DNA of 64,000 bases from Escherichia coli (GTDB lineage: Bacteria > Pseudomonadota > Gammaproteobacteria > Enterobacterales > Enterobacteriaceae): NCBI RefSeq assembly GCF_003334305.1, contig NZ_QOWS01000007.1, one strand, 5' to 3'. A program made the position numbers and the translations under genes. The stretch's first letter is position 1, and each line of letters begins with the position of its first letter. Positions 1-18,968 of this stretch are shown piece after piece. The notes under the pieces were generated by a model. It was not told the origin of the DNA. It saw only the letters and a list, made by a program, of their open reading frames with translations, and searched no databases.

Positions 1-156
1 CACAGCGAAAAGTTGTATAGCCTGGCAAAAGAGCCAAAACGGTTGATCCTAATCCCGGATGGCGAACACATTGATGCTTTTTCCGATCGCCACAGCGATG
101 TTTATCGCGAACAGATGGTGGACTTTATCCTTAGCGCGTTGAATCCGCAGAACTAA
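1..156 (+). CDS. yfhR: 3' end of an upstream gene (partial; last ~51 codons), hydrolase-like; position matches yfhR
   Basis: Frame-1 is open from the window edge to TAA at 154-156 (…LILIPDGEHIDAFSDRHSDVYREQMVDFILSALNPQN*); lies immediately upstream of csiE. Confidence 0.45.
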   Translation, partial: HSEKLYSLAKEPKRLILIPDGEHIDAFSDRHSDVYREQMVDFILSALNPQN

Positions 157-346
157 CCCATGATCGCTAGCACGATAATCATTCACAAAACCACCTTAAG
201 ACATGCTAATCCACTGGTCAGAACAGTTTAAGATGAGAAAAATTCTGTGACGCTTGCCAACATTTCTGATGATTAGCATTCCCTTCGTCATTTCCCTGAG
301 CAAACTTTAGCTATTCTTATCAATTATGCTTATGGGAGATCTACAG

Positions 347-1627
347 ATGATGCCTACGCTTGCTCCACCATCTGTCCTTTCGGCTCCCCAGCGCCGCTGC
401 CAGATCTTGCTGACGCTCTTTCAGCCGGGGTTGACCGCCACCATGGCAACCTTCAGCGAGCTTAATGGTGTGGATGATGATATTGCCAGTCTTGATATCA
501 GCGAAACAGGACGGGAGATCCTGCGCTATCATCAACTCACACTGACGACTGGTTATGACGGTAGCTACCGGGTTGAAGGTACAGTGCTTAACCAACGTTT
601 GTGTTTATTTCACTGGCTACGACGTGGTTTCCGTCTGTGTCCATCATTTATTACCAGCCATTTCACCCCCGCCCTGAAGAGTGAACTGAAGCGGCGCGGA
701 ATTGCGCGTAACTTTTACGACGATACCAATCTACAAGCGTTAGTGAATCTCTGCTCCCGACGGCTGCAAAAACGCTTTGAAACGCGCGATATTCATTTCC
801 TGTGTCTGTATCTGCAATATTGTTTGCTGCAACACCACGCTGGAATTACGCCTCAGTTTAATCCGCTCCAACGTCGCTGGGCGGAATCCTGCCTTGAATT
901 TCAGGTAGCGCAGGAAATTGGACGCCACTGGCAGCGTCGGGCGCTCCAGCCTGTACCACCTGATGAGCCACTGTTTATGGCACTACTTTTTTCCATGTTG
1001 CGGGTTCCCGATCCACTGCGGGATGCGCATCAGCGAGACAGACAATTGCGTCAGTCTATCAAACGTCTGGTAAACCATTTTCGTGAGCTGGGAAATGTTC
1101 GTTTTTATGATGAACAGGGGTTATGTGATCAGCTTTATACCCACCTCGCCCAGGCGTTAAATCGCAGTTTGTTTGCCATCGGTATTGATAATACCCTGCC
1201 GGAAGAGTTCGCCAGACTGTACCCACGCCTGGTGCGCACCACCCGCGCGGCGCTGGCCGGATTTGAAAGTGAATACGGCGTCCATCTTTCTGATGAGGAA
1301 AGTGGTCTGGTCGCGGTGATTTTCGGTGCCTGGCTAATGCAGGAAAACGATCTGCATGAAAAACAGATTATTCTACTGACCGGGAATGATAGCGAGCGAG
1401 AAGCGCAGATTGAGCAGCAGTTACGCGAACTAACGTTACTGCCGCTCAACATTAAGCATATATCGGTAAAGGCATTTTTGCAGACAGGCGCTCCGCGTGG
1501 CGCGGCACTGATTATTGCGCCTTATACCATGCCATTACCGCTCTTTTCACCACCGCTGATCTATACGGACCTGACGCTGACAACACATCAACAGGAGCAG
1601 ATCCGCAAAATGCTCGAATCAGCATGA
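347..1627 (+). CDS. csiE: Stationary-phase inducible protein CsiE
   Basis: 433-aa track ORF; start placed at the MMPTLAPP Met pair to give the expected ~426 aa; gene order. Confidence 0.8.
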   Translation: MMPTLAPPSVLSAPQRRCQILLTLFQPGLTATMATFSELNGVDDDIASLDISETGREILRYHQLTLTTGYDGSYRVEGTVLNQRLCLFHWLRRGFRLCPSFITSHFTPALKSELKRRGIARNFYDDTNLQALVNLCSRRLQKRFETRDIHFLCLYLQYCLLQHHAGITPQFNPLQRRWAESCLEFQVAQEIGRHWQRRALQPVPPDEPLFMALLFSMLRVPDPLRDAHQRDRQLRQSIKRLVNHFRELGNVRFYDEQGLCDQLYTHLAQALNRSLFAIGIDNTLPEEFARLYPRLVRTTRAALAGFESEYGVHLSDEESGLVAVIFGAWLMQENDLHEKQIILLTGNDSEREAQIEQQLRELTLLPLNIKHISVKAFLQTGAPRGAALIIAPYTMPLPLFSPPLIYTDLTLTTHQQEQIRKMLESA

Positions 1628-2758
1628 GGGAACAACTTTCGGGCGCAAAAACATTGCCGGAAGCGCCACCAGCGCCATTACCCAGAACACGCCGTGGCCC
1701 AGATATTGATACAGGAAACCGGCGAAAACGGTCATGATAGCGATACTGCCGCCCATCGCGACGGCAGAGTAAACCGCCTGTAAACGGATGACTTCGCTAC
1801 CCTGGCGAGCAGCAATATAACGCATGGCGGCCAGGTGGCAGACCGTGAAGGTGCCGCAATGCAGAATTTGCACCACTATCAACCACGGCAACGCCGTAGT
1901 TGCTCCCATAATGCCCCAGCGCACTACGCCGCAAATCGCCGAGATCAACAGCATATCGCGTGCACTACAACGGCGGAAAAGTTTATTACTCAGCGCAAAG
2001 ATAATGACTTCCGCCACCACGCCCAGCGACCACAAATACCCCACCGCCGAGGCCGAGTAGCCAGCTGCCTGCCAGTAAATGGCGCTAAAACCGTAATAGG
2101 CCGCATGTGCCCCCTGCAATAAACAAACGCAGGCCAGAAAGCGCCAGTTCTGGCGAACCAGCGCCAACCACGCTGACCAACCGGTGCTCTCCTGCTGGCG
2201 GCTTGCCCCTTGTGGCTGAATCGTCGGACGGATGAGAAAGCCGAGCAGCATGGATGCCACGCCCAACGTCAACAGCGCGAGGATCACCCGATAATCAAAC
2301 ATAGTGACCAGTTTGCCCGTCAGCGCCGAGCCAATGACAAACGCCACCGAGCCCCACAGTCGCACTTTGCCGTAATCAAGCGGGAACTGCTTTTGCCACG
2401 TATTCGCCAGTGCATCGGTCAACGGTACCAGCGGTGAGAAAAAGAGGTTAAAGCCAATCATCACCAGCATCAGCCACGCTACGTGCGCCCCCGCCCAGAA
2501 GGCGACAGCAAAGAGAAGTGTCAGCAGTGCCAGCACGCGCAAGGCGGAAATCAGGCGGGAAGGATCGCTGACGCGGGGCGCGATGAGCAAACTCCCGAGA
2601 AAACGGGCAACCAGACCTGCCCCCAATAACAGGCCGATGGTTTCTGGCGTTAAACCAATCCCTTTAAGCCAGACGCTCCAGAAAGGTAGAAAAATGCCGT
2701 AACTAAAAAAGTATGTGAAATAGCCGAGCGCCAACCAGCGCGTGGATTGCAAAACCAT
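1619..2758 (-). CDS. hcaT: MFS-type transporter of the 3-phenylpropionate locus
   Basis: 379-aa polytopic hydrophobic ORF, convergent with csiE (9-bp tail overlap); adjacent to hcaR. Confidence 0.9.
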   Translation of the reverse strand: MVLQSTRWLALGYFTYFFSYGIFLPFWSVWLKGIGLTPETIGLLLGAGLVARFLGSLLIAPRVSDPSRLISALRVLALLTLLFAVAFWAGAHVAWLMLVMIGFNLFFSPLVPLTDALANTWQKQFPLDYGKVRLWGSVAFVIGSALTGKLVTMFDYRVILALLTLGVASMLLGFLIRPTIQPQGASRQQESTGWSAWLALVRQNWRFLACVCLLQGAHAAYYGFSAIYWQAAGYSASAVGYLWSLGVVAEVIIFALSNKLFRRCSARDMLLISAICGVVRWGIMGATTALPWLIVVQILHCGTFTVCHLAAMRYIAARQGSEVIRLQAVYSAVAMGGSIAIMTVFAGFLYQYLGHGVFWVMALVALPAMFLRPKVVPSC

Positions 2759-2917
2759 GAGTCCCTCCCGTCAGGAGGCGTTAGTCTGGGGTTAATCGAA
2801 TGTTGGTGCAAGTTGAAAAATAAGAATATTCGAGCCTGCTTCCCGATGTCTGTAACGCCAGTTCACAAGCACTAAAAAACTGCGATCCGCGACGCATGTT
2901 GCAAAAATAATGCGTAA

Positions 2918-3808
2918 TTATGCCGTTACGTTTGCCAAACGTTCCTGCACAATGGCGATGAAATCGCGTAATGCCGGCTTCATCTCCCCTTTCTTCCACG
3001 CCATCAGTAAAGCAATGGAAGGCACATTTCCGGCAATGGGACGAAAAACAACCTGTCCGGTATTAAAATTATTCATATAACCGGGTATCAAAGTGACGCC
3101 CAGCCCCATGCCCACCAGATTCATGGTCACCAGAATATTCGTTGCCACCTGGACGATATTTGGCTGGCTGTTTTCTTGCGCAAACCACGCTTTAACGATC
3201 GGCGCAAGCGAACCGGAATACGCCGGATCGGTACTGACGAAATTCACGCCATCCAGTTGCGCGGCGGTGATCTCTTTTTCATGTGCTAAAGGGTGATCAA
3301 CCGGTAACACAACCACTAATGGTTCGTCAAAAAGCTCCAGATAATCAATCTCCGGGCTATAAACAGGATGGCGCATTAAGCCGACGTCGAGTTCACCACG
3401 GCGAATTTTTTCCTCCTGTTGCGTGGTGATTAAACTCACCAGCTCAATCAAGGTGTCTGGCTGTCTGAGACGAAACATCGGTAATACTTTTGGCAGTAAA
3501 TTCACTTCCGCCGATGGCACAAAGCCAATGGTTAATTGTCTGTCTTCCTGAACAATTTTCCGCGCCCGTAATTTGGCATTTTCCGCTTGTTCGAGGATTG
3601 CCAGCGCGTCCTGGAGAAAACATTCTCCCGCCGCCGTCAACGCGACTTTGCGCTTATCCCTCACCAGTAACGGAACACCGACACAGTTTTCAAGATCGCG
3701 GATCTGGCTGCTTAACGAAGGCTGTGAGGTATGCAGTTTTTCCGCCGCACGGGTAAAGTTCAGTGCCTGCGCCACTGCGACGAAATAGCGTAAATGCCGT
3801 AGTTCCAT
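2918..3808 (-). CDS. hcaR: LysR-family transcriptional activator of the hca operon
   Basis: N-terminal HTH LRHLRYFVAVAQALNFTRAAEKLHTSQPSLSSQIRDLE; true start MELRHL (ATG at 3808), the track ORF is extended by 31 codons; divergent from hcaE. Confidence 0.9.
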   Translation of the reverse strand: MELRHLRYFVAVAQALNFTRAAEKLHTSQPSLSSQIRDLENCVGVPLLVRDKRKVALTAAGECFLQDALAILEQAENAKLRARKIVQEDRQLTIGFVPSAEVNLLPKVLPMFRLRQPDTLIELVSLITTQQEEKIRRGELDVGLMRHPVYSPEIDYLELFDEPLVVVLPVDHPLAHEKEITAAQLDGVNFVSTDPAYSGSLAPIVKAWFAQENSQPNIVQVATNILVTMNLVGMGLGVTLIPGYMNNFNTGQVVFRPIAGNVPSIALLMAWKKGEMKPALRDFIAIVQERLANVTA

Positions 3809-3907
3809 CACCTTCCCCTTGTTATCGAAAAAACGTCTCAGCTGGTAGAAATTAACTATTTCACATATTAGCAACCAACCAGCAACATCCTTATGGCACA
3901 AAAATAG

Positions 3908-5819
<1,912 letters not shown>

Positions 5820-5820
<1 letters not shown>

Positions 5821-6140
5821 TGAATCGAATTTATGCGTGTCCCGTTGCGGATGTGCCGGAGGGTGAGGCTCTCCGGATCGATACCTCGCCCGTCATCGCC
5901 CTGTTCAACGTTGGCGGCGAGTTTTATGCCATTAACGATCGTTGCAGCCATGGTAATGCGTCAATGTCAGAAGGGTATCTGGAAGATGACGCCACGGTGG
6001 AGTGCCCGCTACACGCCGCCAGTTTTTGCCTGAAAACGGGGAAAGCGTTATGCCTGCCCGCCACCGATCCGCTCACCACTTATCCAGTACACGTTGAAGG
6101 TGGTGACATTTTCATCGACTTACCGGAGGCGCAGCCATGA
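5820..6140 (+). CDS. hcaC: Rieske-type ferredoxin of the dioxygenase system
   Basis: 106 aa; [11 protein letters not shown]…CPLH Rieske ligands. Confidence 0.9.
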
Positions 6141-6949
6141 GCGATCTGCATAACGAGTCCATTTTTATTACCGGCGGCGGATCGGGATTAGGGCTGGCGC
6201 TGGTCGAGCGATTTATCGAAGAAGGCGCGCAGGTTGCCACGCTGGAACTGTCGGCGGCAAAAGTCGCCAGTCTGCGTCAGCGATTTGGCGAACATATTCT
6301 GGCGGTGGAAGGTAACGTGACCTGTTATGCCGATTATCAACGCGCGGTCGATCAGATCCTGACTCGTTCCGGCAAGCTGGATTGTTTTATCGGCAATGCA
6401 GGCATCTGGGATCACAATGCCTCACTGGTTAATACTCCCGCAGAGACGCTCGAAACCGGCTTCCACGAGCTGTTTAACGTCAATGTTCTCGGTTACCTGC
6501 TGGGCGCAAAAGCCTGCGCTCCGGCGTTAATCGCCAGTGAAGGCAGCATGATTTTCACACTGTCAAATGCCGCCTGGTATCCTGGCGGCGGTGGCCCGCT
6601 GTACACCGCCAGTAAACATGCCGCAACCGGACTTATTCGCCAACTGGCTTATGAACTGGCACCGAAAGTGCGGGTGAATGGCGTCGGCCCGTGTGGTATG
6701 GCCAGCGACCTGCGCGGCCCACAGGCGCTCGGGCAAAGTGAAACCTCGATAATGCAGTCTCTGACGCCGGAGAAAATTGCCGCCATTTTACCGCTGCAAT
6801 TTTTCCCGCAACCGGCGGATTTTACGGGGCCGTATGTGATGTTGGCATCGCGGCGCAATAATCGCGCATTAAGCGGTGTGATGATCAACGCTGATGCGGG
6901 TTTAGCGATTCGCGGCATTCGCCACGTAGCGGCTGGGCTGGATCTTTAA
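6137..6949 (+). CDS. hcaB: cis-dihydrodiol dehydrogenase (short-chain dehydrogenase family)
   Basis: 270 aa; ITGGGSGLG nucleotide-binding motif, YTASK catalytic Y-x3-K. Confidence 0.9.
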
Positions 6950-8161
<1,212 letters not shown>

Positions 8162-8257
8162 CCAGGATAATTAGCGAATATCTCAATGCCTGGGGCGTGG
8201 CGAGGTGCAAGAGTGTGTATTACGTTTAAATCACATTATCTTGCAAAGGGATTGGTT

Positions 8258-8680
8258 ATGAACACACTACGTTATTTTGATTTTGGAGCTGCCCGCCCCG
8301 TTTTGTTATTAATTGCCCGTATCGCCGTGGTCTTAATTTTCATTATTTTTGGTTTTCCCAAAATGATGGGCTTTGACGGTACGGTCCAATATATGGCCTC
8401 GTTGGGCGCGCCAATGCCGATGCTGGCAGCGATTATTGCGGTAGTTATGGAAGTGCCCGCCGCGATATTAATCGTGCTTGGCTTTTTCACCCGTCCGCTG
8501 GCGGTGCTGTTTATTTTCTACACGCTGGGTACGGCGGTGATTGGTCACCATTACTGGGATATGACCGGCGATGCGGTTGGGCCAAATATGATTAATTTCT
8601 GGAAGAATGTCAGTATCGCTGGCGCATTCCTGCTGCTGGCAATTACCGGGCCGGGGGCAATTTCTCTCGATCGGCGTTAG
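8258..8680 (+). CDS. yphA: DoxX-family inner membrane protein
   Basis: 140-aa hydrophobic protein from MNTLRYF; the track ORF carries a 24-codon upstream extension. Confidence 0.75.
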
Positions 8681-8684
8681 GAAA

Positions 8685-8719
8685 GATGCCGGATGCGGCG
8701 TGAACGCCTTATCCGGCAT
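8685..8719. repeat. REP (repetitive extragenic palindrome) element
   Basis: gatgccggatgcggcgtgaacgccttatccggcat, canonical REP sequence between convergent yphA and yphB. Confidence 0.8.
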
Positions 8720-8727
8720 TTAATAAA

Positions 8728-9600
8728 TTACAGCCACTCTACCCGCAACGACATCTCTGAAGTTGTTGATTCCCCTGGTGCTAGCGCAATGAGATCACCC
8801 CCTTCCGGGCGATGATGATCATCCGGCGCATGGCTCATCGGTTCCAGACAGAAGAAATCAAACGCATATCCTTTATCAAACGCAGGGTCGGAAACAAAGA
8901 TGAAATAACACGGTGCAGGTGGCGTCGTTTCCATGATGATGGCATAACCTTCCTGCGGCTGCTCGATGCGGGCCTGACCATTCCATCCGGCAAAACCATT
9001 GTTCACCCACTGGCGCGGCAACGGCGCGGGCTGGTTAAAATCCAGTTCCTGCGGTAGCTGCTCGCAAAACTCACCCGCCAGCCACTGCTCCCGCTCCAGC
9101 CAGTAACCGCTCGCCTGTGCCTGAATCCGCGTTTGCGGCGACAACGGAAAATAAGGATGCCAGCCGGTACCAAATGGCAGCGTCTCTGCCCCTTGATTGG
9201 TGACAGAGAGCGTCACCGTCAGCGTATCCGCCGTTAAATGAAACGCCTGACTTACCCGATAGTGATAGACACCGCTGCGATGTTCATACACCAGACACAA
9301 ACTATCATCGCTGTGCGAGACACATTGCCACTCGCCCAGCCAGCCATCGCCGTGTAGATAGTGCGCATCCCACTCAACATTCGGTTGCAGTTGATACTCA
9401 CGCCCCTGCCAGACAAAACGATTGCCGCTCACCCGGTTTGCAAATGGCACCAGCGGAAAACATGAGGCATCGGTTGCCACACCGCTTTTTTTACCAGGAC
9501 GTAAGAGCGGCGTCGTATCGCGCCAGAAGCCTTCGATTACGCCGCCCTGGTCAGAAACGTCCAGCTTTAGCGACCCGTGGGATAAGGTATAGATGGTCAT
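8728..9600 (-). CDS. yphB: Aldose 1-epimerase (mutarotase)-like protein
   Basis: 290 aa; last gene of the minus-strand yphGFEDCB cluster. Confidence 0.8.
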   Translation of the reverse strand: MTIYTLSHGSLKLDVSDQGGVIEGFWRDTTPLLRPGKKSGVATDASCFPLVPFANRVSGNRFVWQGREYQLQPNVEWDAHYLHGDGWLGEWQCVSHSDDSLCLVYEHRSGVYHYRVSQAFHLTADTLTVTLSVTNQGAETLPFGTGWHPYFPLSPQTRIQAQASGYWLEREQWLAGEFCEQLPQELDFNQPAPLPRQWVNNGFAGWNGQARIEQPQEGYAIIMETTPPAPCYFIFVSDPAFDKGYAFDFFCLEPMSHAPDDHHRPEGGDLIALAPGESTTSEMSLRVEWL

Positions 9601-9611
9601 CCGCTAACTCC

Positions 9612-10673
9612 TTAATCCGGGAAGTTAATCACAACTTTCCCGCATTTGCCGCTCGCCATCAGCGCATAGGCATCACCTGCCTGTTCCAGCGAGAAGCGAT
9701 GGGTAATGGCGTTACGCGGCCACAGTTTCCAGTCCGTCAGATCATGGGCGCATTTTTCCATATGGAACAGACTGGTCACCCAGGAGCCGATAATCCGCCG
9801 TTGATGGTGCATCAGATCGGCGCTGACCTCGAACTCCACTTTTCCGGTTTCTCCGATGTAAACCACCCGTCCCCAGTCAGCGGTGGATCGCAGTGCCAGC
9901 AAGCGACCTGCGGCATTACCAGAACAATCGAGCGCAACATCCGCGCCACCGTGGGTGAGTTCGGCGATAATCTGCGGCAGACCTTCGGTGGTTGCTAAAT
10001 AGCCGTGATCCATCACCCCTAACTGTTTTGCCATCGCCAGACGTTCCGGCAGCATATCAACGCCGATGATCCGTTTTGCACCGCGACCTTTCGCCAGCAT
10101 CATCGCCATCATGCCGACTGGCCCCAGACCGACCACCAGCACGTTATCACTGCCGGAAACTTCGCCGCGCAAAATCCCTTCATAGGCCGTGCCAACGCCG
10201 CAACTGATAAACGCACCATCTTCGTAGCTCAGCGCATCCGGCAGGAGGATCAGATCTTTTTCTTCCGCCAGCAGATATTCGGCATGACCGCCGTCACGCT
10301 GCCAGCCGTAAGCCGCTTTTCCTTTGCCAGTACAAGAGATAGGAAAGCCGCGGCGGCAGTTCGGGCAAAAACCACAGCCAGAAATGTGATACACCAGCAC
10401 GCGATCACCCTCTTTAAAATGGCGACAGCCTTGCCCCATCGCCACAATCTGCCCGCACGGTTCATGACCGTTGATAAATCCCTGGTATAACGGTTTATCG
10501 GGTGCCGCCGCCGTGGCACGGTGTTGATGATAGATATAGTGGACATCGCTTCCGCAAATCCCGGAGGATTTCATTTTGATCAGTACCTGGTTAATCCCCG
10601 GCGTCGGCACCGCAACTTCCCGCAGATCGACGGTTGAATTTCCTGGTAAATAAGCTGCCAGCATCGTTTTCAT
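9612..10673 (-). CDS. yphC: Zn-dependent alcohol/polyol dehydrogenase family protein
   Basis: Catalytic-Zn motif GHEPCG, structural-Zn cluster CGFCPNC, NAD fold VGLGPVG; start at MKTMLAAY (track ORF is 11 codons longer). Confidence 0.8.
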   Translation of the reverse strand: MKTMLAAYLPGNSTVDLREVAVPTPGINQVLIKMKSSGICGSDVHYIYHQHRATAAAPDKPLYQGFINGHEPCGQIVAMGQGCRHFKEGDRVLVYHISGCGFCPNCRRGFPISCTGKGKAAYGWQRDGGHAEYLLAEEKDLILLPDALSYEDGAFISCGVGTAYEGILRGEVSGSDNVLVVGLGPVGMMAMMLAKGRGAKRIIGVDMLPERLAMAKQLGVMDHGYLATTEGLPQIIAELTHGGADVALDCSGNAAGRLLALRSTADWGRVVYIGETGKVEFEVSADLMHHQRRIIGSWVTSLFHMEKCAHDLTDWKLWPRNAITHRFSLEQAGDAYALMASGKCGKVVINFPD

Positions 10674-10738
10674 AAATCCCTCATTAACAATACGATTAAT
10701 TTTCATCCCTGCCGCACCCGCGCCAGGGGCGTTAAGGT

Positions 10739-11737
10739 TTAGCGTTTCGCTTTACTGCTTCGCTGGGTCAGCAAGATATTCGCCAGCACCGCCACCACGA
10801 TGATGACGCCGCGTACCACCTGCTGGAAAAAGGAGTTAATACCGAGCAGCACCAGACCGTTACCGATTAGCGTAATCACCAGCACACCAAGCAATGTACC
10901 GAACAGGGAACCGCGACCGCCGGAAAGTGCCGTACCGCCGACCACGACCGCGGCGATGACGTCAAACTCCAGACCGTTTGCGGCACCTGCGTTACCAGAA
11001 CCGAGGCGCGCCGCCAACAAAATGCCGGTCACCGCCGCTAATAATCCCGAAAGGGTAAAGATAAGAATGCGCACCCGACGAACGTTGATGCCGCACAACT
11101 GCGCCGCCGTAGCATTACCGCCAACGGCAAAAACCGAGCGCCCGAAGGCGGTTTTGCGGCTGATGAACACAAACAGCGCAAACAACACAATCATGATCAG
11201 CGCGGATACCGGCACACCGAGAAATTGTCCGCCCAGCCAGTCCAGCACCTCGTTTTCGTCAATCGGCACTGGCAGTGCGTTCGTCATAAACAGCCCCATT
11301 CCGCGCAGGGCGCTCCACAGCCCCAGTGTGGCAACGAAACTTGGTACGTTAAACACGCCGCGCAGCACCCCGGCCAGCGTTCCCATCAGCGCGCCTAACA
11401 GCAACACCAGCAGACACGCCACCGCCAGCGGAACTTCAAATTGCAGCAAAAATGCCAGGCACACCGAGACAAAAGCCACCATCGGCCCAACGCTGACATC
11501 AATTTCACCGGAGATAATAATCAGCGTCATCGCCCAGGCGGCAATCCCAATGGTGGCGGCATCGCGCAGCACGTTCATCTGGTTATTCAATGAGATAAAG
11601 CCAGGCGCGTTCAGGGAGAAGACCAGATAAAGAATGGCGATTACCACCAGCAAACCGATCTCATTAATATGGCGACTGACAAATTGTTTGAGCGAGACGC
11701 TCTTGCCCTGCGGCAATGATAATGACGAAGCAGACAT
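10739..11737 (-). CDS. yphD: ABC transporter permease (sugar/RbsC-like)
   Basis: 332-aa polytopic ORF; the 276-aa plus-strand track ORF inside it is an antisense shadow. Confidence 0.85.
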   Translation of the reverse strand: MSASSLSLPQGKSVSLKQFVSRHINEIGLLVVIAILYLVFSLNAPGFISLNNQMNVLRDAATIGIAAWAMTLIIISGEIDVSVGPMVAFVSVCLAFLLQFEVPLAVACLLVLLLGALMGTLAGVLRGVFNVPSFVATLGLWSALRGMGLFMTNALPVPIDENEVLDWLGGQFLGVPVSALIMIVLFALFVFISRKTAFGRSVFAVGGNATAAQLCGINVRRVRILIFTLSGLLAAVTGILLAARLGSGNAGAANGLEFDVIAAVVVGGTALSGGRGSLFGTLLGVLVITLIGNGLVLLGINSFFQQVVRGVIIVVAVLANILLTQRSSKAKR

Positions 11738-11761
11738 CTTCAGGTTCCTCGGTAAAATTCA

Positions 11762-13273
11762 TCAGTGCACAGACAGAATGGCGGACATCAGCTCATCCAC
11801 ATTGACCGGCGAGTGAAACTCCTGCGAGAACGTACCGTGCTGTAACAACAGGATGCGGTCGCACACCAGCGGCAACTCCTCCACTTCACTGGAGATAAAC
11901 ACCACGCTTTTTCCTTCGGCAGCCAGCTCACGGACAATACGGTAAATCTGCTGTTTGGCTTCGATATCGACGCCGCGCGTTGGCTCGTCGAGCAACAAAA
12001 TCTGGCTGGCGGCATAGACCCAACGACCGATCACCACTTTTTGCTGATTGCCGCCAGAAAGCGTGCCGATGGGCGTTTCGCTACTGGCGGCCTTGACCGT
12101 CATCCGCTGCATCACCTCTTCGGTCAGGCGGCGGATGGTGGACCATTGCAGTACGCCGTTGGCGCTGATTTTTTGCCGATTGGTCAGCACTGTATTTTCG
12201 TCAACGCCCAACCAGGGAATGATCCCCGCTTCTTTGCGGTTTTCTGGCGTATAGCCAATGCCGCGTTTCAGCATGTCGCCGTAATCGGGGCGCGTGATTT
12301 TCTCGCCGTTGATAACAATTTCGCCCTGTTCATACTCCTCCAGCCCAACAATCGCCTTCAGCAATTCACTGCGCCCTGCCCCCAGCAGGCCAGCAATGCC
12401 AAGCACTTCGCCGCGACGTAACGTAAAGCTGATATCCTCCAGCTTGGGCTTATGGCGTAATGCACGGACTTCCAGCACGGCCTGATCCACAATTTCCTGA
12501 GGGGCTACCGGCGCAATATCAACGTGATCACGCCCTAGCATTAGCGACACAATATGATGCGTGGAGGTGTTTTCGAGCATCACATCGCCCGCCACCTGAC
12601 CATCGCGCATAACGGTGGCACAGGAGGCAATGCGGCGGATTTCTTCCATCCGGTGGCTGACATAAATCACCGCCACGCCCAGTGCCGACATCTTTTTCAC
12701 CGCACTGATCACCAGTTCAACTTCTGCACTGGCAAGCGAGCTGGTGGGTTCATCAAGAATGACCACGCGCGGCTCGCCCTTCATCACCCGTGCAATTTCC
12801 ACCAGTTGCTTTTGCGCCGGGCTTAGCGTTGAAACAAGTTGTTCAGGACTAACGTCAACGCCCAGCGCCTGTAAGCAACGTTGGGCATCCTGCGCCATTT
12901 GCAGGTAATCAATCATGCCGTTGCGGCGAGGCCATTGACCAAGGCAGAGGTTTTCTGCCACCGTCAGCCCTTCCACCAGACTTAATTCCTGATAAACCGC
13001 ACGAACCCCCAGTTCAGCGGCACGGCGAGTCAACGTAGCTTCGTCACCTTCCAGTCGCGTCTCGCCAATCCAGATATCACCGCTATCCGGGCGTTCGCTG
13101 CCGGTAAGCATTCGAATGAGAGTCGATTTGCCCGCGCCGTTTTTACCTAACAGCGCACGAACTTCGCCTTTATTGAGCGTGAAGTTAACGTTATCCAGCG
13201 CAACGACGCCGGGGTAACGCTTATTTCCTGCCACCACTTTTGCTACCGGGACTGCCTCTGTTGCCGTGAACAT
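11762..13273 (-). CDS. yphE: ABC transporter ATP-binding protein, tandem ATPase domains (sugar type)
   Basis: 503 aa; two Walker A motifs (GKNGAGKST, GLLGAGRSE) and ABC signatures (LSPAQKQ, LSGGNQQK). Confidence 0.9.
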   Translation of the reverse strand: MFTATEAVPVAKVVAGNKRYPGVVALDNVNFTLNKGEVRALLGKNGAGKSTLIRMLTGSERPDSGDIWIGETRLEGDEATLTRRAAELGVRAVYQELSLVEGLTVAENLCLGQWPRRNGMIDYLQMAQDAQRCLQALGVDVSPEQLVSTLSPAQKQLVEIARVMKGEPRVVILDEPTSSLASAEVELVISAVKKMSALGVAVIYVSHRMEEIRRIASCATVMRDGQVAGDVMLENTSTHHIVSLMLGRDHVDIAPVAPQEIVDQAVLEVRALRHKPKLEDISFTLRRGEVLGIAGLLGAGRSELLKAIVGLEEYEQGEIVINGEKITRPDYGDMLKRGIGYTPENRKEAGIIPWLGVDENTVLTNRQKISANGVLQWSTIRRLTEEVMQRMTVKAASSETPIGTLSGGNQQKVVIGRWVYAASQILLLDEPTRGVDIEAKQQIYRIVRELAAEGKSVVFISSEVEELPLVCDRILLLQHGTFSQEFHSPVNVDELMSAILSVH

Positions 13274-13295
13274 AGGGACCTCTGCGAATCAGCGA

Positions 13296-14279
13296 TTAGG
13301 GCAGACCATCAACGTGCGTTGCCAGCCACTGTTTACCATCTTCCGTTTTGGTATAGAGATCGATTGGCACCTGAATCACTTTTTCACCGTCGGCTTGTTT
13401 ATTGATAACCTTCAATGTTTGCGCGAAAACAGCATTGCCCATTTTCTTACCGGAAATATCCACTACCGCTTTCAGCACCTGATTGTTTTCCAGCTCCTGA
13501 GCAATTTCGGTTGTCATATCCGAACCGAAAACAGCAATTTTTCCGGCCTGATTTTGATTACGTACCGCTTTTACCGCGCCGAGTGTCGCACCGCCCGACT
13601 CCCCCATAATGGCGTTGAGATCCGGCGTGGAGATAATCAGTTTTTCACCAACGGAAATCGCTTTATCTAAAACAGTCCCTTCCTGATTAGCGACAATTTG
13701 CGCGCCGGGAACGCGGGATTTTAATACTTCTTCAAATCCTTTACGTCGCTGCACACAAACTTCAAAGGCTTCGCAATTGATGACGGCAATTTTCGGCTGG
13801 TCAATTTTATTGGCAATAAAATAATCGGCGGCAGCGTTACCCAGTTTTTTACCAAATTCCAGTGGATCGCCGACCAGATACGCCGAGACATATTTATCGA
13901 CACCCTTTTGATTAATACAGGTGTTGTAGCAAATCACCGGAATACCCGCTTCACTGGCGCGACGAACGGTACGGCTACTGCCATTTTCAGACACTGCCGA
14001 TAAAATAATGGCATCGACATTACGCGCCACGAGGGTATCAACAAAGGTACTTTCTTTCGAAATATCACCCTGGGCGTTAGTTTCAATTAACTGTACCTGT
14101 ACTGAAGAATCTTTTGCCGCATCCTGAACGCCCTGACGCACTCCAGCGTAATATCCCTGGGTATCAAGGTATATTGCACCAATGGTCATCTCTTTATCCG
14201 CAGCCCTGGCAAATAGTGCGCTACCTAATAGCGTACCCATTAATAATAGATTACGGGTTGTTCTCATTTTTTTAGGCAT
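13296..14279 (-). CDS. yphF: Periplasmic substrate-binding protein of the ABC transporter
   Basis: 327 aa; N-terminal signal peptide MPKKMRTTRNLLLMGTLLGSALFARA; AGGAGG ribosome-binding site upstream. Confidence 0.85.
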   Translation of the reverse strand: MPKKMRTTRNLLLMGTLLGSALFARAADKEMTIGAIYLDTQGYYAGVRQGVQDAAKDSSVQVQLIETNAQGDISKESTFVDTLVARNVDAIILSAVSENGSSRTVRRASEAGIPVICYNTCINQKGVDKYVSAYLVGDPLEFGKKLGNAAADYFIANKIDQPKIAVINCEAFEVCVQRRKGFEEVLKSRVPGAQIVANQEGTVLDKAISVGEKLIISTPDLNAIMGESGGATLGAVKAVRNQNQAGKIAVFGSDMTTEIAQELENNQVLKAVVDISGKKMGNAVFAQTLKVINKQADGEKVIQVPIDLYTKTEDGKQWLATHVDGLP

Positions 14280-14333
14280 AGTGCCTCCTGTAGGGTTTTT
14301 ATTAACAACGGCTTATTCTAATTATTTTGTGAT

Positions 14334-14354
14334 GAGCGGCAGCGCGTGCCGCTC
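14334..14354 (-). other. GC-rich intercistronic stem-loop between yphG and yphF (8-bp stem, 5-nt loop, no U-tract)
   Basis: gagcggca-gcgcg-tgccgctc perfect inverted repeat in the 96-nt yphG-yphF spacer. Confidence 0.5.
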
Positions 14355-14375
14355 AAATATTACAGTTAATAGGGT

Positions 14376-17300
14376 TTAGTGAACGTAGTTAAAAATAAAA
14401 GGCATCACGGTGGTGAATAATGCCGCTTTCGGCCAGGCCGGATTAATCGCCGTCAATTCAGCGCGAGCAGATTCATATTGCGCAACCTCCCCGAGTCCCG
14501 CGGACGCCAGCATCGCCACCATCAGGCATTTTTCTTTATGCTGCTGTTGTAAATCGCCATACAGCGACAACAGGTCAGGTTGTGAAACAGCAAAGAAATC
14601 CGCCTCAATACTGGTTTTCGCCATCTCTTGCGCCCACTGTTTCATTTCACTAAACAGTTGCTGTGCGGTTTGCTGTTCACCCAGCAGTCGCAGCGCCATT
14701 CCTTGCCAGAAGAGATAATCAACCGGCTGATCGTTGTAATAACTGTGGATGTTAATGGTGCGATCGCCGGTCGCCGCCAGACGTAAACAACGCATCGCTT
14801 CAGTTTCATCGCCCTGCGCGTTGGCGCATATCGCCTGCCAGAACCAGATGTCGTTATCAGTTTGCCCCGGTAAACGGCCTTCGCTTAAATTCTCCGGATA
14901 ATGCAGCGCGGCATGAAGCAGTTCGCTGGCCTGCTGCGGCTCTCTGGCATCAAGATGCTGCCAGGCGCGTAATAACTGGTTGAGGATAAACTGACTGGTG
15001 ACCTTCCCTTCCCCGCCTTCCCACGGGTGGAATTTGCGCGTGGCGAGAATGTCCGCCGCTTTGTCTGCCTGACCCGTGAGATGCCACAAATTGAGCAACT
15101 CTGCTGTCATGTCGTCGCGTTTCAGCGCAATTTCCAGATTATTTTCCAGACGCGCCAGTCGTTTCTCCGGTGTGGCTCCGCTTAACTTATCAAGCAAATC
15201 CCGTTCGAAAAGCAGACGTGCATCCTGCGGCGCAAGCTGATAAGCATTATCAAGATAACGCGCGGCCAGCTCATAATCGTGTTGCTTATTCCACGCATGG
15301 ATCGCTAACCCGCGCCAGCCGTCGGCAAACTCCGGCGACATCTCTACGCAACGTTGCCATAAGGTAATGGCTTTGTTGTAGCTACGCTTGTTGTAGTAGA
15401 AGCAGGCCAGTAAATGACGGGCAAACCAGCACTCTTCAATACTCTCCAGCGCCGCCACTTCTTCCAGCGTATTCGGGAAACGGACAAACTGCGGGAAGAC
15501 ATCAATGGCTTTTGCGACCAGTTCGCCGCGTTCGGCTTTCGGCAATAAACTCGCCTGCAGGTAAAGCGGCAGCGTGCGCTGGCAGTCCAGTGCGTTCAGC
15601 ATCTCTGCCGCCAGGGTGGGCATTCCCCAGTTAATCAGTTGCCCGGCGGTCATCAGAGCGTTAACGTCGCGTCCCTGACACAGACCGCGCCACTGCGCGA
15701 GAGCTGATTCGCTACGACCATCGAACCAGTTCAGCCACCACAGAGTGGCGTTCAGCGGATAATCGCGCAGCAGTTTCTCGCGCTGCACACGCGCGTTGTC
15801 CTGACGACCACTTAACACCAGCAGCAGATTATGCAGGCAAAGCACTTCCTGATTGGTTGGGCAGGCGCGAAGACTTTGTTGGCAAAAATCCAGACCAGCG
15901 TCGAAGTTACCATTACGCGCCGCCAGTCGTGCCAGGCCATAATAGCCACCGGCTTTGCTGTTGCCGCTCCAGACCGCACGCCAGAAATCCTCTTCGGCTT
16001 GTTGATATTGTCCCTGACGTTCGTAAGCACTGGCGCGAATCAAACTGGCCTGTCCGCACTGCGGATTTTTGTTCAGCGCATGTGCGCGTTTCAGCGCCTG
16101 AGTGGCATACGCCACCGCTTGCGGGAAATCGGCGCGGTTATATTCCAGCATCGCCAGCGCCAGGTTACAGCGGTAATCCAGCGGATCCAGCACCACGCCG
16201 CGCAGGTAGTAATCGAACGGTGAACGGCTGGCGTGATGATATTGCTCCAGATGCTGACCGATAAACCAGGCTTCATCTGTACTGGTAATGTCTTGTGCTG
16301 CCAGTGGCGCTTTGGCGACGTCCGGCAACGGCAACTCTTGCGGCTGATGTTCCTGATAACTCAGTACAATATTGCCGTCGGCATCGGAGAGCTCAATGGT
16401 CAGCCTTTCAGGATTGATACCGTGCAACACGCCCTGGATGGCGGTCGCAGGCATCAGTGCCACGGCATCATCAAGTAACGCGTTGCATTTGCCGATTTCG
16501 CGGATCGCCAGGCGGTATCCGTTCAACGGAGAGATGGCATACAGCCCCCACTCAATCCCCCGCTTACTACGCTGGAGTTTTATCACCGCATCGCGGGAGG
16601 CATTTTGCACCATGCCCAAAGAATGATAAGGCAGGAAATACTGCTCAAAACGCATCTCTTCGTAAGCATCAAGCCAGGTAAAATCGGGCTGGTTATCGGC
16701 AAAAATACCGGTCATCAGTTCGATATACGGGCCGTTATTGTCGGTCAGACTCTTATCCCACGCCTGGCCAAATTCACTGTGTCCCCAACTCCACTGTTTT
16801 TTACCTGGCGCGATATGGTGGTTGGCAACGTGCAGCAAACCGCCATCTTCATCGTGACACCACGCGCCGACAAAATCGTACTGCGATTTTTCGGCCATAT
16901 ATGAGGTTGGAACAGGCACATTTTTATAGCGAGAAATGTCCACTCCGGCGGAGTAGTCCACTTTGTAGTAAGTGCCGGTGGCGATGGGGAAAGCGGAGAC
17001 GGCCCGTTTGCCGTGATCAAACACCGCAGTCACATCCGGTGGGAAAACGCTCTGATGCCCTTCCCCCCCTTTCACTGCCGGGTTGGCCCACCACAAGAAA
17101 TGACGCGGCGTGGCGTTACCGTTATAGACGCGGCTGGCGATTTCCAGCGCCGCCCGTTCAGGACGCAGTGTGAAACCTGTCATCACCTGTAAACCGTGCA
17201 TCGGCTCCGTTTCGCCGACCCACACCGTCTGTGCGCCGTCTTCATGGGCTTCGAGGGTGAAATCAACGGGCATAAAGGTGGTCGGGCGATGGTGTTGCGG

Positions 17301-17657
17301 CCAGTTAAACTCAATCCCGCCAGAGATCCACGGTCCCAGCAGCCCCACCAGCGCAGGTTTAATGACTTCATTGTGATAGACAAAATCGCGTTGTTTCACT
17401 TTATCCCATGCGCGATGCACACGACCGCCCAGTTCCGGCAGGATCATCACTTTGATGTAGTCGTTTTCCAGCCACACCGCCTGCCAGGATTTCAGGGTTT
17501 TCTGCTCGCTCAGCGTATCGGTCACGCCGTAGGGATAAACCGCGCCGGACGATCCCTGATAAACGCGATTTTCCAAGAACATGGGATGTATATCCTGCGG
17601 CCCGGTTTCATAGGTCGGGATCTCAACGCGCTCTTGCCACACTTTTACTGGAGTCAT
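14376..17657 (-). CDS. yphG: Large (~1,093 aa) protein of unknown function with TPR-like helical repeats in the C-terminal half
   Basis: Continuous 1,124-codon ORF; start assigned to MTPVKVWQER (ATG at 17657); heads the yph operon. Confidence 0.75.
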   Translation of the reverse strand: MTPVKVWQERVEIPTYETGPQDIHPMFLENRVYQGSSGAVYPYGVTDTLSEQKTLKSWQAVWLENDYIKVMILPELGGRVHRAWDKVKQRDFVYHNEVIKPALVGLLGPWISGGIEFNWPQHHRPTTFMPVDFTLEAHEDGAQTVWVGETEPMHGLQVMTGFTLRPERAALEIASRVYNGNATPRHFLWWANPAVKGGEGHQSVFPPDVTAVFDHGKRAVSAFPIATGTYYKVDYSAGVDISRYKNVPVPTSYMAEKSQYDFVGAWCHDEDGGLLHVANHHIAPGKKQWSWGHSEFGQAWDKSLTDNNGPYIELMTGIFADNQPDFTWLDAYEEMRFEQYFLPYHSLGMVQNASRDAVIKLQRSKRGIEWGLYAISPLNGYRLAIREIGKCNALLDDAVALMPATAIQGVLHGINPERLTIELSDADGNIVLSYQEHQPQELPLPDVAKAPLAAQDITSTDEAWFIGQHLEQYHHASRSPFDYYLRGVVLDPLDYRCNLALAMLEYNRADFPQAVAYATQALKRAHALNKNPQCGQASLIRASAYERQGQYQQAEEDFWRAVWSGNSKAGGYYGLARLAARNGNFDAGLDFCQQSLRACPTNQEVLCLHNLLLVLSGRQDNARVQREKLLRDYPLNATLWWLNWFDGRSESALAQWRGLCQGRDVNALMTAGQLINWGMPTLAAEMLNALDCQRTLPLYLQASLLPKAERGELVAKAIDVFPQFVRFPNTLEEVAALESIEECWFARHLLACFYYNKRSYNKAITLWQRCVEMSPEFADGWRGLAIHAWNKQHDYELAARYLDNAYQLAPQDARLLFERDLLDKLSGATPEKRLARLENNLEIALKRDDMTAELLNLWHLTGQADKAADILATRKFHPWEGGEGKVTSQFILNQLLRAWQHLDAREPQQASELLHAALHYPENLSEGRLPGQTDNDIWFWQAICANAQGDETEAMRCLRLAATGDRTINIHSYYNDQPVDYLFWQGMALRLLGEQQTAQQLFSEMKQWAQEMAKTSIEADFFAVSQPDLLSLYGDLQQQHKEKCLMVAMLASAGLGEVAQYESARAELTAINPAWPKAALFTTVMPFIFNYVH

Positions 17658-17774
17658 GGTGCCCTCAATATTAACAAGACATACTGAATTAAAAGATTTG
17701 TGGCAGTGTATTGAACAATCTGGCAATGTTTTCGCGGAATAATCACGCAATTAACTAAACAAGGTTTAGTGAAG

Positions 17775-18968
17775 ATGAGAGCCTGCATTAACAATCAACA
17801 GATTCGCCACCATAACAAATGCGTGATTCTGGAACTGCTGTACCGGCAAAAGCGCGCCAATAAATCAACGCTGGCCCGGCTGGCGCAAATTTCGATTCCG
17901 GCAGTCAGTAATATTTTGCAGGAACTGGAAAGCGAAAAACGGGTGGTGAATATCGACGATGAAAGCCAGACGCGCGGGCATAGTAGCGGTACATGGCTGA
18001 TTGCGCCGGAAGGTGACTGGACGCTGTGCCTGAACGTGACGCCCACCAGTATTGAGTGTCAGGTTGCTAATGCTTGTTTAAGTCCGAAAGGCGAGTTTGA
18101 GTATTTACAGATTGATGCACCGACGCCGCAGGCGCTGCTGTCCGAAATCGAAAAATGCTGGCATCGCCACCGTAAATTGTGGCCGGACCGCACCATCAAT
18201 CTGGCGCTGGCAATCCACGGTCAGGTTGATCCGGTGACCGGCGTGTCGCAAACCATGCCGCAAGCGCCGTGGACAACGCCGGTGGAGGTGAAATATCTGC
18301 TGGAAGAGAAGCTCGGCATTCGGGTGATGGTCGATAATGACTGCGTGATGCTGGCGCTGGCGGAGAAATGGCAAAATAATTCGCAGGAACGGGATTTCTG
18401 CGTGATCAACGTTGATTACGGCATTGGCTCGTCGTTCGTGATTAACGAGCAAATTTATCGCGGCAGTTTGTATGGTAGCGGACAGATTGGTCACACCATC
18501 GTTAATCCGGATGGCGTCGTCTGCGACTGTGGACGTTACGGCTGCCTGGAAACCGTCGCCTCGTTAAGTGCTTTAAAAAAACAGGCGCGGGTATGGCTAA
18601 AATCACAACCGGTTAATACTCAGCTTGATCCTGAAAAACTGACAACCGCGCAGTTAATCGCTGCCTGGCAGAGTGGAGAACCGTGGATCACCAGCTGGGT
18701 TGACCGCAGTGCCAATGCCATTGGTTTGAGTCTGTATAACTTCCTCAACATCCTCAATATTAATCAGATTTGGTTGTACGGTCGCAGTTGTGCCTTTGGT
18801 GAGAACTGGCTTAATACTATTATTCGCCAGACAGGATTTAACCCGTTCGACCGCGACGAAGGACCGAGCGTGAAAGCGACGCAAATTGGCTTCGGGCAAT
18901 TAAGCCGCGCACAACAGGTGCTGGGAATTGGCTATTTGTATGTTGAGGCGCAGTTACGACAGATTTGA
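17775..18968 (+). CDS. yphH: ROK-family (NagC/Mlc-like) transcriptional regulator
   Basis: N-terminal HTH (…STLARLAQISIPAVSNILQEL) and ROK zinc motif CDCGRYGCLE; divergent from yphG; track start is a GTG two codons upstream. Confidence 0.8.
   Translation: MRACINNQQIRHHNKCVILELLYRQKRANKSTLARLAQISIPAVSNILQELESEKRVVNIDDESQTRGHSSGTWLIAPEGDWTLCLNVTPTSIECQVANACLSPKGEFEYLQIDAPTPQALLSEIEKCWHRHRKLWPDRTINLALAIHGQVDPVTGVSQTMPQAPWTTPVEVKYLLEEKLGIRVMVDNDCVMLALAEKWQNNSQERDFCVINVDYGIGSSFVINEQIYRGSLYGSGQIGHTIVNPDGVVCDCGRYGCLETVASLSALKKQARVWLKSQPVNTQLDPEKLTTAQLIAAWQSGEPWITSWVDRSANAIGLSLYNFLNILNINQIWLYGRSCAFGENWLNTIIRQTGFNPFDRDEGPSVKATQIGFGQLSRAQQVLGIGYLYVEAQLRQI

Follow-up and report, generated by a model that had tools for sequence, protein, structure and literature searches.

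YphG of Escherichia coli, a mutarotase-fold and tetratricopeptide repeat protein of a putative sugar-uptake operon, is a candidate cytoplasmic sugar-converting enzyme

We have analysed a gene in a stretch of 64,000 nucleotides of Escherichia coli DNA (contig NZ_QOWS01000007.1 of assembly GCF_003334305.1, hereafter the window), where an earlier note, made from the sequence alone, had pointed to a very large protein at the head of an ATP-binding cassette (ABC) transporter operon. The gene in question is yphG, which is already annotated in E. coli. Its open reading frame (ORF) is real, with 1,093 codons plus stop, and the limits given in that note agree exactly with RefSeq, where the product is labelled "DUF5107 domain-containing protein" of 1,093 aa counted from ATG. 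The gene lies on the minus strand, which the note had left unstated. As listed, the long ORF is a single minus-strand frame of 14376..17750, with 1,124 aa counted from TTG. On the same strand and with short spacers, yphG is followed by yphF, yphE, yphD, yphC and yphB, so that it does stand upstream of the ABC genes as claimed. The common strand, the short spacers and the conserved linkage to an importer support its place in a putative yph sugar-uptake operon, and the regulator gene yphH is encoded divergently (Table 1).

Table 1 Features at the yphG locus of E. coli, with positions in the window
Feature	Position	Strand	Basis
yphG coding sequence, DUF5107 family protein	14376..17657	-	ORF list and RefSeq annotation in a 100%-identical genome
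Aldose-1-epimerase-like beta-supersandwich domain, residues 1-345 (all-beta 5-345 in the model)	16623..17657	-	most conserved part
Pfam DUF5107 (PF17128) match, residues 39-323	16689..17543	-	E 8.9e-55, model positions 5-280 of 310
Motif GGIEFNWPQHHR, residues 113-124, the family's most conserved (E116, H122, H123, R124)	17286..17321	-	alignment, 78 homologues
Motif TDNNGPYIELM, residues 305-315, with D306 and invariant E313	16713..16745	-	alignment, 78 homologues
Second small beta domain, residues 346-440, poorly conserved	16338..16622	-	AlphaFold secondary structure; mean conservation 0.32
Tetratricopeptide repeat-like helical region, residues 460-1093, ~35 helices, ~17 hairpins	14379..16280	-	AlphaFold model
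Shine-Dalgarno GAGGG, 4-5 nt before ATG 17657	17662..17666	-	direct sequence reading
Divergent yphG-yphH control region, 117 bp, including the 31 non-coding "extension" codons	17658..17774	.	conservation
Inverted repeat TTCACTAAAC-ctt-GTTTAGTTAA, just upstream of yphH	17751..17773	.	repeat search
RNA hairpin, 9 bp, GC-rich, in the 96-nt yphG-yphF spacer, without U-tract	14333..14355	-	fold -16 kcal/mol, z = -3.8
yphF, periplasmic sugar-binding protein of monosaccharide-type (CUT2) ABC importer	13296..14279	-	annotation
yphE, ABC ATPase	11762-13273	-	annotation; NCBIfam similarity to AraG/XylG
yphD, permease	10739-11737	-	annotation; NCBIfam similarity to RbsC/AraH
yphE and yphD together	10739..13273	-	annotation
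yphC, zinc-dependent dehydrogenase	9612..10706	-	annotation; Tdh- and IolM-like below NCBIfam cut-offs
yphB, canonical aldose-1-epimerase family protein, solved as PDB 3nre	8728..9600	-	annotation
yphH, divergent ROK-family (NagC/Mlc-like) regulator	17775..18968	+	annotation; NCBIfam below equivalog cut-offs

A 4-kb query around yphG is 100% identical to E. coli strain A7 and is present in all of the 5,426 complete E. coli genomes, with at least 80% of its length found in 5,420 of them; yphG is a core gene of E. coli. The other six genomes show less than 80% coverage of the region. In addition, shorter versions of E. coli YphG (643-955 aa, 98-100% identity) are found in public data as clusters P0002, P0009, P0028, P0033 and P0038. 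Some of these clusters hold more than 1,000 member sequences, and they may represent contig-end fragments or pseudogenised alleles. The ratio of non-synonymous to synonymous substitution rates (dN/dS) of yphG is 0.056 in comparison with E. albertii and 0.075 in comparison with Enterobacter sp. BIGb0383. Values of 0.06-0.08 rule out a non-functional ORF, and these comparisons indicate that yphG is under strong purifying selection and encodes a constrained protein.

We have built an AlphaFold model of YphG from an alignment of 78 full-length homologues with 27-75% identity. Its mean predicted local distance difference test score (pLDDT) is 95.3 and its predicted template modelling score (pTM) is 0.92. 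The model bears out the division into a beta-rich N-terminal half and a helical C-terminal half that had been proposed from the sequence. The N-terminal half had also been described as rich in aromatic and acidic residues, and this does not hold, as the fractions of W/Y/F and of D/E are nearly equal in both halves. According to the model, YphG consists of an N-terminal domain of residues 1-345, which is the putative sugar-binding or catalytic site, a second small beta domain, and a long helical region. The hidden Markov model match to PF17128, together with an architecture like that of the solved member 5cd6, places YphG in the DUF5107 family.

The helical region belongs to the tetratricopeptide repeats (TPRs) both by sequence profile and by the antiparallel helix-pair solenoid seen in the structure. 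Pfam TPR_16 is matched at residues 499-560 (E 2.9e-6) and 754-813 (E 5.1e-4), next to many weaker TPR matches, and few of the ~17 hairpins are significant by sequence alone. Consensus TPR proteins in the PDB match the C-terminal half with an E value of 1.9e-36. The peptide which the earlier note had quoted as an example of its helical motifs, WRGLAIHAWNKQHDYELAARYLDNAYQLAP, is found at residues 781-810, within the second TPR_16 match, and it also matches these consensus TPR proteins. An NCBIfam scan of YphG returned TPR-region matches only, far under the cut-off. Overall, the suggestion that the C-terminal ~630 residues are TPR-like is confirmed by Pfam, by the PDB matches and by the model, in which the C-terminal half is a genuine TPR-type solenoid.

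As shown by the model, residues 1-345 adopt the aldose-1-epimerase (mutarotase) fold, i.e., the galactose-mutarotase beta-supersandwich, and among the structural neighbours of this domain whole mutarotases lead by a wide margin. The N-terminal domain is alike in fold to the aldose 1-epimerases (GalM 1l7j, YphB 3nre, YeaD 2hta and hexose-6-phosphate mutarotase 2ciq; PF01263), but it is ~100 residues larger, it is followed by the second beta domain and by the 630-residue TPR solenoid, and its set of conserved residues is family-specific. By sequence YphG is not a member of the mutarotase family, and the Pfam scan gave no match to PF01263 even at E ≤ 10. The earlier note had asked whether the N-terminal domain is glycoside-hydrolase-like. 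No glycoside hydrolase (GH) or polysaccharide lyase (PL) family was matched by YphG in the Pfam and NCBIfam scans, and the GH and PL enzymes among its fold neighbours match via their supersandwich domains only, at lower Z. To these multidomain enzymes (GH38, LacZ/GH2 domain 5, GH174 fucanase, PL4 and PL26 rhamnogalacturonan lyases, GH94) YphG is clearly less similar in structure than to the mutarotases; it has neither a TIM barrel nor an (alpha/alpha)6 barrel, the catalytic domains of such enzymes, and the sequence of its helical half matches TPR repeats. Judged from the model, the N-terminal domain is mutarotase-like rather than a recognised glycoside-hydrolase catalytic fold.

The sole solved relative of the N-terminal domain by sequence (E 1.2e-19) is PDB 5cd6, i.e., BDI_1685 of Parabacteroides distasonis, a structural-genomics deposit of Pfam DUF5107 named 'TPR-domain containing protein', for which no publication or function was found in the searchable literature. 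This protein has only 575-580 residues and no counterpart to the ~490 residues with which the YphG solenoid ends. A fold search of AFDB50 with YphG returned unnamed DUF5107 and generic TPR proteins only. In known TPR solenoid proteins (Cdc27 and Cdc16 of APC/C, the TPR domain of OGT/SPINDLY, RapI, MamA and PilF/PilW), the solenoid is a protein-binding scaffold, while that of YphG is joined to a conserved sugar-fold domain and is confidently packed on it (pTM 0.92). The probable role of the TPR half is to brace or cap the catalytic domain, or to bring about oligomerisation.

In the 78-sequence alignment, columns have a mean conservation of 0.60 in residues 1-345, 0.32 in residues 346-440 and 0.40 in residues 441-1093. 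Polar or aromatic residues conserved at 85% or more number 43 in the N-terminal domain versus 9 in the 650-residue C-terminal half. The key conserved residues of the N-terminal domain are E116, H122, H123, R124, N179, N192, H215, K287, D306, E313 and N322-Q323-x-D325. Of the two motifs in Table 1, the second takes the form LTDxxGPYIELM (residues 304-315) in this alignment, and NQPDF (322-326) and PGKKQW (284-289) are further motifs of the domain. The short member 5cd6 retains E116, H123, N192, H215, K287 and E313, and it is without the NQPD motif and H122. Conserved polar positions in the solenoid are sparse, namely Q472, Y483, D491, W563, R782, E818 and E880, the last within FHPWEGGEG; the nine of the C-terminal half include W563, R782, E818 and E880. 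This distribution suggests that the N-terminal domain holds the active or ligand site, and that the solenoid is structural and adds few key residues.

Signal peptide and topology analysis, which the earlier note had proposed as a check, found neither a signal peptide nor a hydrophobic membrane segment in the YphG sequence. The 19-residue hydropathy maximum is 1.36 and the N-terminus is hydrophilic. The missing hydrophobic segments rule out a membrane or secreted form in E. coli, and YphG is predicted to be a soluble cytoplasmic protein. Likewise, signal peptides are absent from all of the 85 homologues examined.

We have searched for relatives among 1.84 billion cluster representatives and have found 5,747 of them, with 1,145 clusters (50% identity) at E ≤ 1e-30. 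The best 150 relatives are mostly of full length (~1,100 residues), down to ~28% identity, and the family is spread over Proteobacteria, Bacteroidota, Bacillota and Bifidobacterium. N-terminal signal peptides are present in certain more distant proteins with DUF5107 and TPRs (P0204, P0222, P0257 and P0264; ~30% identity, motif RVYQGAQG). The gene for one such distant member (locus L089, 8001-13487) is followed by AP_endonuc_2 (a xylose-isomerase-like TIM barrel) and a GFO/IDH/MocA oxidoreductase. These cases suggest an exported DUF5107 subfamily whose sugar pathway differs and may be oxidative, and the wider DUF5107 family is probably functionally diverse.

For the genomic context, a scan of one genome per species gave at least 597 relatives, and 80 loci were kept from Enterobacterales, Aeromonas, Photobacterium, many Bacteroidota, many Bacillota and Bifidobacterium. 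Neighbours were counted in 85 loci from three phyla, with crude ORF calls for five genes on each side, which were clustered, and the clusters were checked with Pfam and NCBIfam. A sugar importer is found in 54 of the 85 loci and is directly adjacent in 36. Mostly it is a XylE-like sugar porter (41 loci, including 31 of the 35 from Bacteroidota; adjacent in 32, mostly co-directional), and a CUT2 ABC system is found in 9 loci. Actually, a large protein beside a sugar transporter, which had been thought unusual, is in the normal position of this family. A regulator of the AraC (43 loci) or ROK type (14 loci, 13 of them among the 15 proteobacterial ones) is present in 55 loci in all. Glycosidases of GH2 (29 loci) or GH35 (12) occur in 33 loci, those of GH36, GH97 or GH95 in 10, and SusC/SusD in 11. 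A canonical mutarotase, either GalM (10 loci) or a YphB-type epimerase (14 loci; 14 of the 15 proteobacterial ones), is encoded in 24 loci, and a Zn-dependent dehydrogenase in 6. With independent gene calls and precomputed Pfam matches, the order of a divergent ROK regulator, the YphG homologue, a Sugar_tr transporter of the major facilitator superfamily (MFS) and Aldose_epim is seen in Aeromonas, in Serratia and in a third record.

The GH2 partner links these loci to galactosides. Its closest PDB entry is 8u01 (1,022 bits), which is assigned to GH2_20, a subfamily whose characterised members are beta-galactosidases (PMC12243196). In NCBIfam the partner relates, below the cut-off, to the exo-beta-1,4-galactosidase BT4151. 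We have also considered a galactofuranosidase identity, which is rejected because the solved galactofuranosidase 9j6m scores only 47 bits, and a galactokinase upstream of the porter in Prevotella loci, where the gene proved to be another MFS transporter. In the Bacteroidota loci signal peptides are found on the glycosidases but on neither GalM nor the YphG homologue, so that YphG works downstream of the inner-membrane porter. No glycosidase is found in the proteobacterial YphG loci. Overall, the orthologous group acts in the cytoplasm directly after a monosaccharide-type importer, in loci for galactose-type sugars where a canonical mutarotase is often its neighbour.

Based on the above analyses, we propose tentatively that YphG is a cytoplasmic sugar-converting enzyme, with mutarotase-type chemistry on an imported galacto-type sugar. 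This is the most economical mechanism, but its chemistry is unproven, and we hold it as a possibility short of a probable answer. The substrate would be a small, monosaccharide-sized galacto-type sugar delivered by the adjacent importer, which is the YphDEF ABC system for E. coli, whereas most other lineages have a XylE-like proton symporter. The GH2_20 and GH35 beta-galactosidases would set this sugar free on the spot in Bacteroidota and Bacillota. Proteobacteria such as E. coli lack these hydrolases in the locus and would act as scavengers of the free sugar, controlled by the ROK regulator YphH. Most likely YphG would then carry out acid/base chemistry at the anomeric centre, with ring opening followed by interconversion of anomers or of ring forms. 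The canonical mutarotase of the locus, YphB or GalM, would receive the product, which would then enter central galactose metabolism.

Several observations weigh against this proposal. With a canonical mutarotase encoded in the same locus, a second, plain one would be superfluous, and a mutarotase requires only ~300 residues, which leaves the conserved 650-residue TPR half without explanation. The canonical catalytic set is H96, H170, D243 and E304 in L. lactis GalM, and this His/His/Asp/Glu set is not demonstrably retained in YphG. When the N-terminal domain of DUF5107 is aligned by hhalign with GalM, YphB and combined profiles, the probabilities are only 0.07-0.8%, versus 98% for the control of GalM against YphB. 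Such alignments, unreliable at below 1% probability and not used as evidence here, set H122/H123 at the first catalytic histidine ('HGG'), and at this low confidence a position that is mostly Tyr in the homologues falls at the second one. In addition, YphF, YphC and the porter match families only below the cut-offs (for YphF, the distant NCBIfam matches AlsB, MglB, RbsB and YtfQ, every one of them), and the distant members with signal peptides and other neighbours suggest that the family is functionally non-uniform.

In the searchable literature, we have found no experimental study of YphG or of other DUF5107 proteins, and no functional work on other yph genes or on the combination of a mutarotase with TPRs. 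There yphG appears only as a PCR or typing marker of Klebsiella, and YphH is merely listed as an uncharacterised ROK regulator. YphF is one of the many binding proteins that show induction on levoglucosan versus fructose (PMC8753852), which we read as general catabolite derepression and not as a clue to the substrate. The gene yphG itself, its Pfam family, the TPR repeats and the crystal structure of a relative are already public.

The main rival explanation, which we consider rather unlikely, is a glycoside hydrolase or lyase activity of YphG, which would belong to an unclassified family and cleave a small imported galactoside. Carboxylates such as E116, D306 and E313 would act in the supersandwich domain on a galactosyl-polyol, a methyl-galactoside-like compound or galactobiose, the freed aldose would need the co-encoded mutarotase, and in E. 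coli YphC would oxidise the aglycone. Such a hydrolase accounts better than mutarotase-type chemistry for the canonical mutarotase encoded alongside and for the occasional Zn-dehydrogenase (three lineages). It also fits the several invariant acidic residues, the conserved surface, which exceeds what a monosaccharide mutarotase needs, and the export of more distant family members; moreover, DUF5107 is among the families enriched in phagotrophic stramenopiles, beside digestive enzymes (PMC8163842). However, the scans with zero GH or PL matches and the wide margin by which whole mutarotases lead the structural neighbours argue against it, as do the partner transporters, which are of monosaccharide types (CUT2 ABC, XylE-like porter). 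In Bacteroidota, periplasmic GH2, GH35, GH36 and GH97 would yield monosaccharides ahead of import.

It is improbable that YphG is a non-enzymatic sugar-binding sensor or scaffold, with the TPR solenoid contacting the transporter or the AraC/ROK regulator and thereby tuning uptake or transcription. This would fit the TPR half and a canonical catalytic set that is not demonstrably kept, and a regulator adjoins the gene, usually divergently, in 43 of the 85 loci. On the other hand, divergent regulators are usual in any catabolic operon, and the regulator type switches by phylum (AraC versus ROK) while YphG stays constant, which argues against a specific partnership. The TPR half is poor in conserved surface-type residues, the exported relatives would be unable to touch cytoplasmic regulators, and the dense invariant His, Glu, Asp, Lys and Arg of the N-terminal domain look catalytic. 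The earlier note had offered a carbohydrate-active or a scaffolding role; the first gains from the context of sugar import and galactosides across phyla, and a pure scaffold is disfavoured by the 43 conserved polar or aromatic residues of the N-terminal domain.

Beyond mutarotase-type chemistry itself, YphG-type DUF5107 proteins might constitute a new enzyme class, in which a domain of mutarotase fold, with catalytic residues of its own and a TPR cap, performs an undescribed step of galactose or galactoside metabolism; we regard this as doubtful, yet conceivable. Candidate steps are the isomerisation of furanose and pyranose or other ring forms, the epimerisation of a free sugar, and the hydrolysis of a small galactoside, for which these proteins would be a new GH family. 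If this is true, a function would be given to a y-gene operon of E. coli K-12 and to more than 1,000 sequence clusters from gut and soil bacteria. If YphG carries out a step that is missing between the import of the sugar and the Leloir pathway, this would close a gap in models of cross-feeding and of how galactans and galactosides are used, and the substrate of the YphDEF importer and of the YphH regulator would be named as well. For cross-feeding it is relevant that the E. coli locus is glycosidase-free but encodes importer, YphG and mutarotase. The gene yphG, a core gene with strong constraint and a very large family, is an uncharacterised part of the E. coli K-12 genome, and its family is placed here in the loci by which gut and soil bacteria degrade beta-galactosides and import the freed sugar. 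What our analysis adds is a testable frame (fold, candidate catalytic residues, cytoplasmic location and the link to galactose), and not the function itself.

The start of yphG had been left ambiguous, and an in-frame extension of 31 codons does exist, but the start is the ATG at 17657 rather than the upstream TTG. A true product of 1,124 residues from TTG 17750, a frame that is open in both E. coli and E. albertii, is very improbable, as this TTG has no Shine-Dalgarno sequence ahead while GAGG lies 5 nt ahead of ATG 17657, as the 25 nt between it and the divergent yphH start leave no room for a promoter, and as more than 100 homologues from many genera all begin 2-4 residues ahead of the conserved VKVWQE. 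In Enterobacter sp. BIGb0383, the extension is broken by an in-frame stop and an indel, yet its DNA is still ~90% identical, which is the pattern of regulatory DNA. The whole 117-bp region between yphG and yphH is ~90% identical across E. coli, E. albertii and this Enterobacter, and the dS of yphG against Enterobacter is 1.45, i.e., saturated. Since the frame is broken and the identity stays so high where synonymous sites are saturated, the 31 codons are conserved regulatory DNA. The bases of the inverted repeat in this region are kept in three genera, and the repeat is a candidate operator of YphH.

Between yphG and yphF, the stem of the hairpin is kept in E. albertii and Enterobacter while its loop varies. 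It is a candidate intercistronic stabiliser or processing element, and may uncouple the expression of yphG from that of yphF. A sigma-70 consensus scan of 14000-18200 returned zero promoters, and terminator-like sites occurred at chance level only.

Several minor observations concern the neighbours of the homologues. In Enterobacterales there are two YphG lineages, ~55% identical, i.e., the E. coli type with ABC importer and YphC versus a type with an MFS porter. In Cedecea neteri (L013) and Enterobacter sp. Ag1 (L017), both at ~1-15600, a CUT2 ABC system and an MFS porter flank one ROK-YphG pair. In Mucilaginibacter/Chitinophaga, an exported protein of ~735 residues without Pfam match (L018 6335-8560, L047 7783-9966) lies between SusD or AraC and the porter or the YphG homologue, and a Bacillota locus (L007, 6859-7905) encodes a 349-residue protein, also without Pfam match, whose NE..EW motifs are reminiscent of clan GH-A. 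Both of these neighbours may be unclassified glycosidases. In marine Flavobacteriia and Flammeovirga (L028, L029, L034, L063 and L070), the YphG homologue is found amid several sulfatases, GH30, a GDSL esterase and GH2_20 in SusC/D loci, which suggests that the polymer source of these marine Bacteroidota species is a sulfated galactan.

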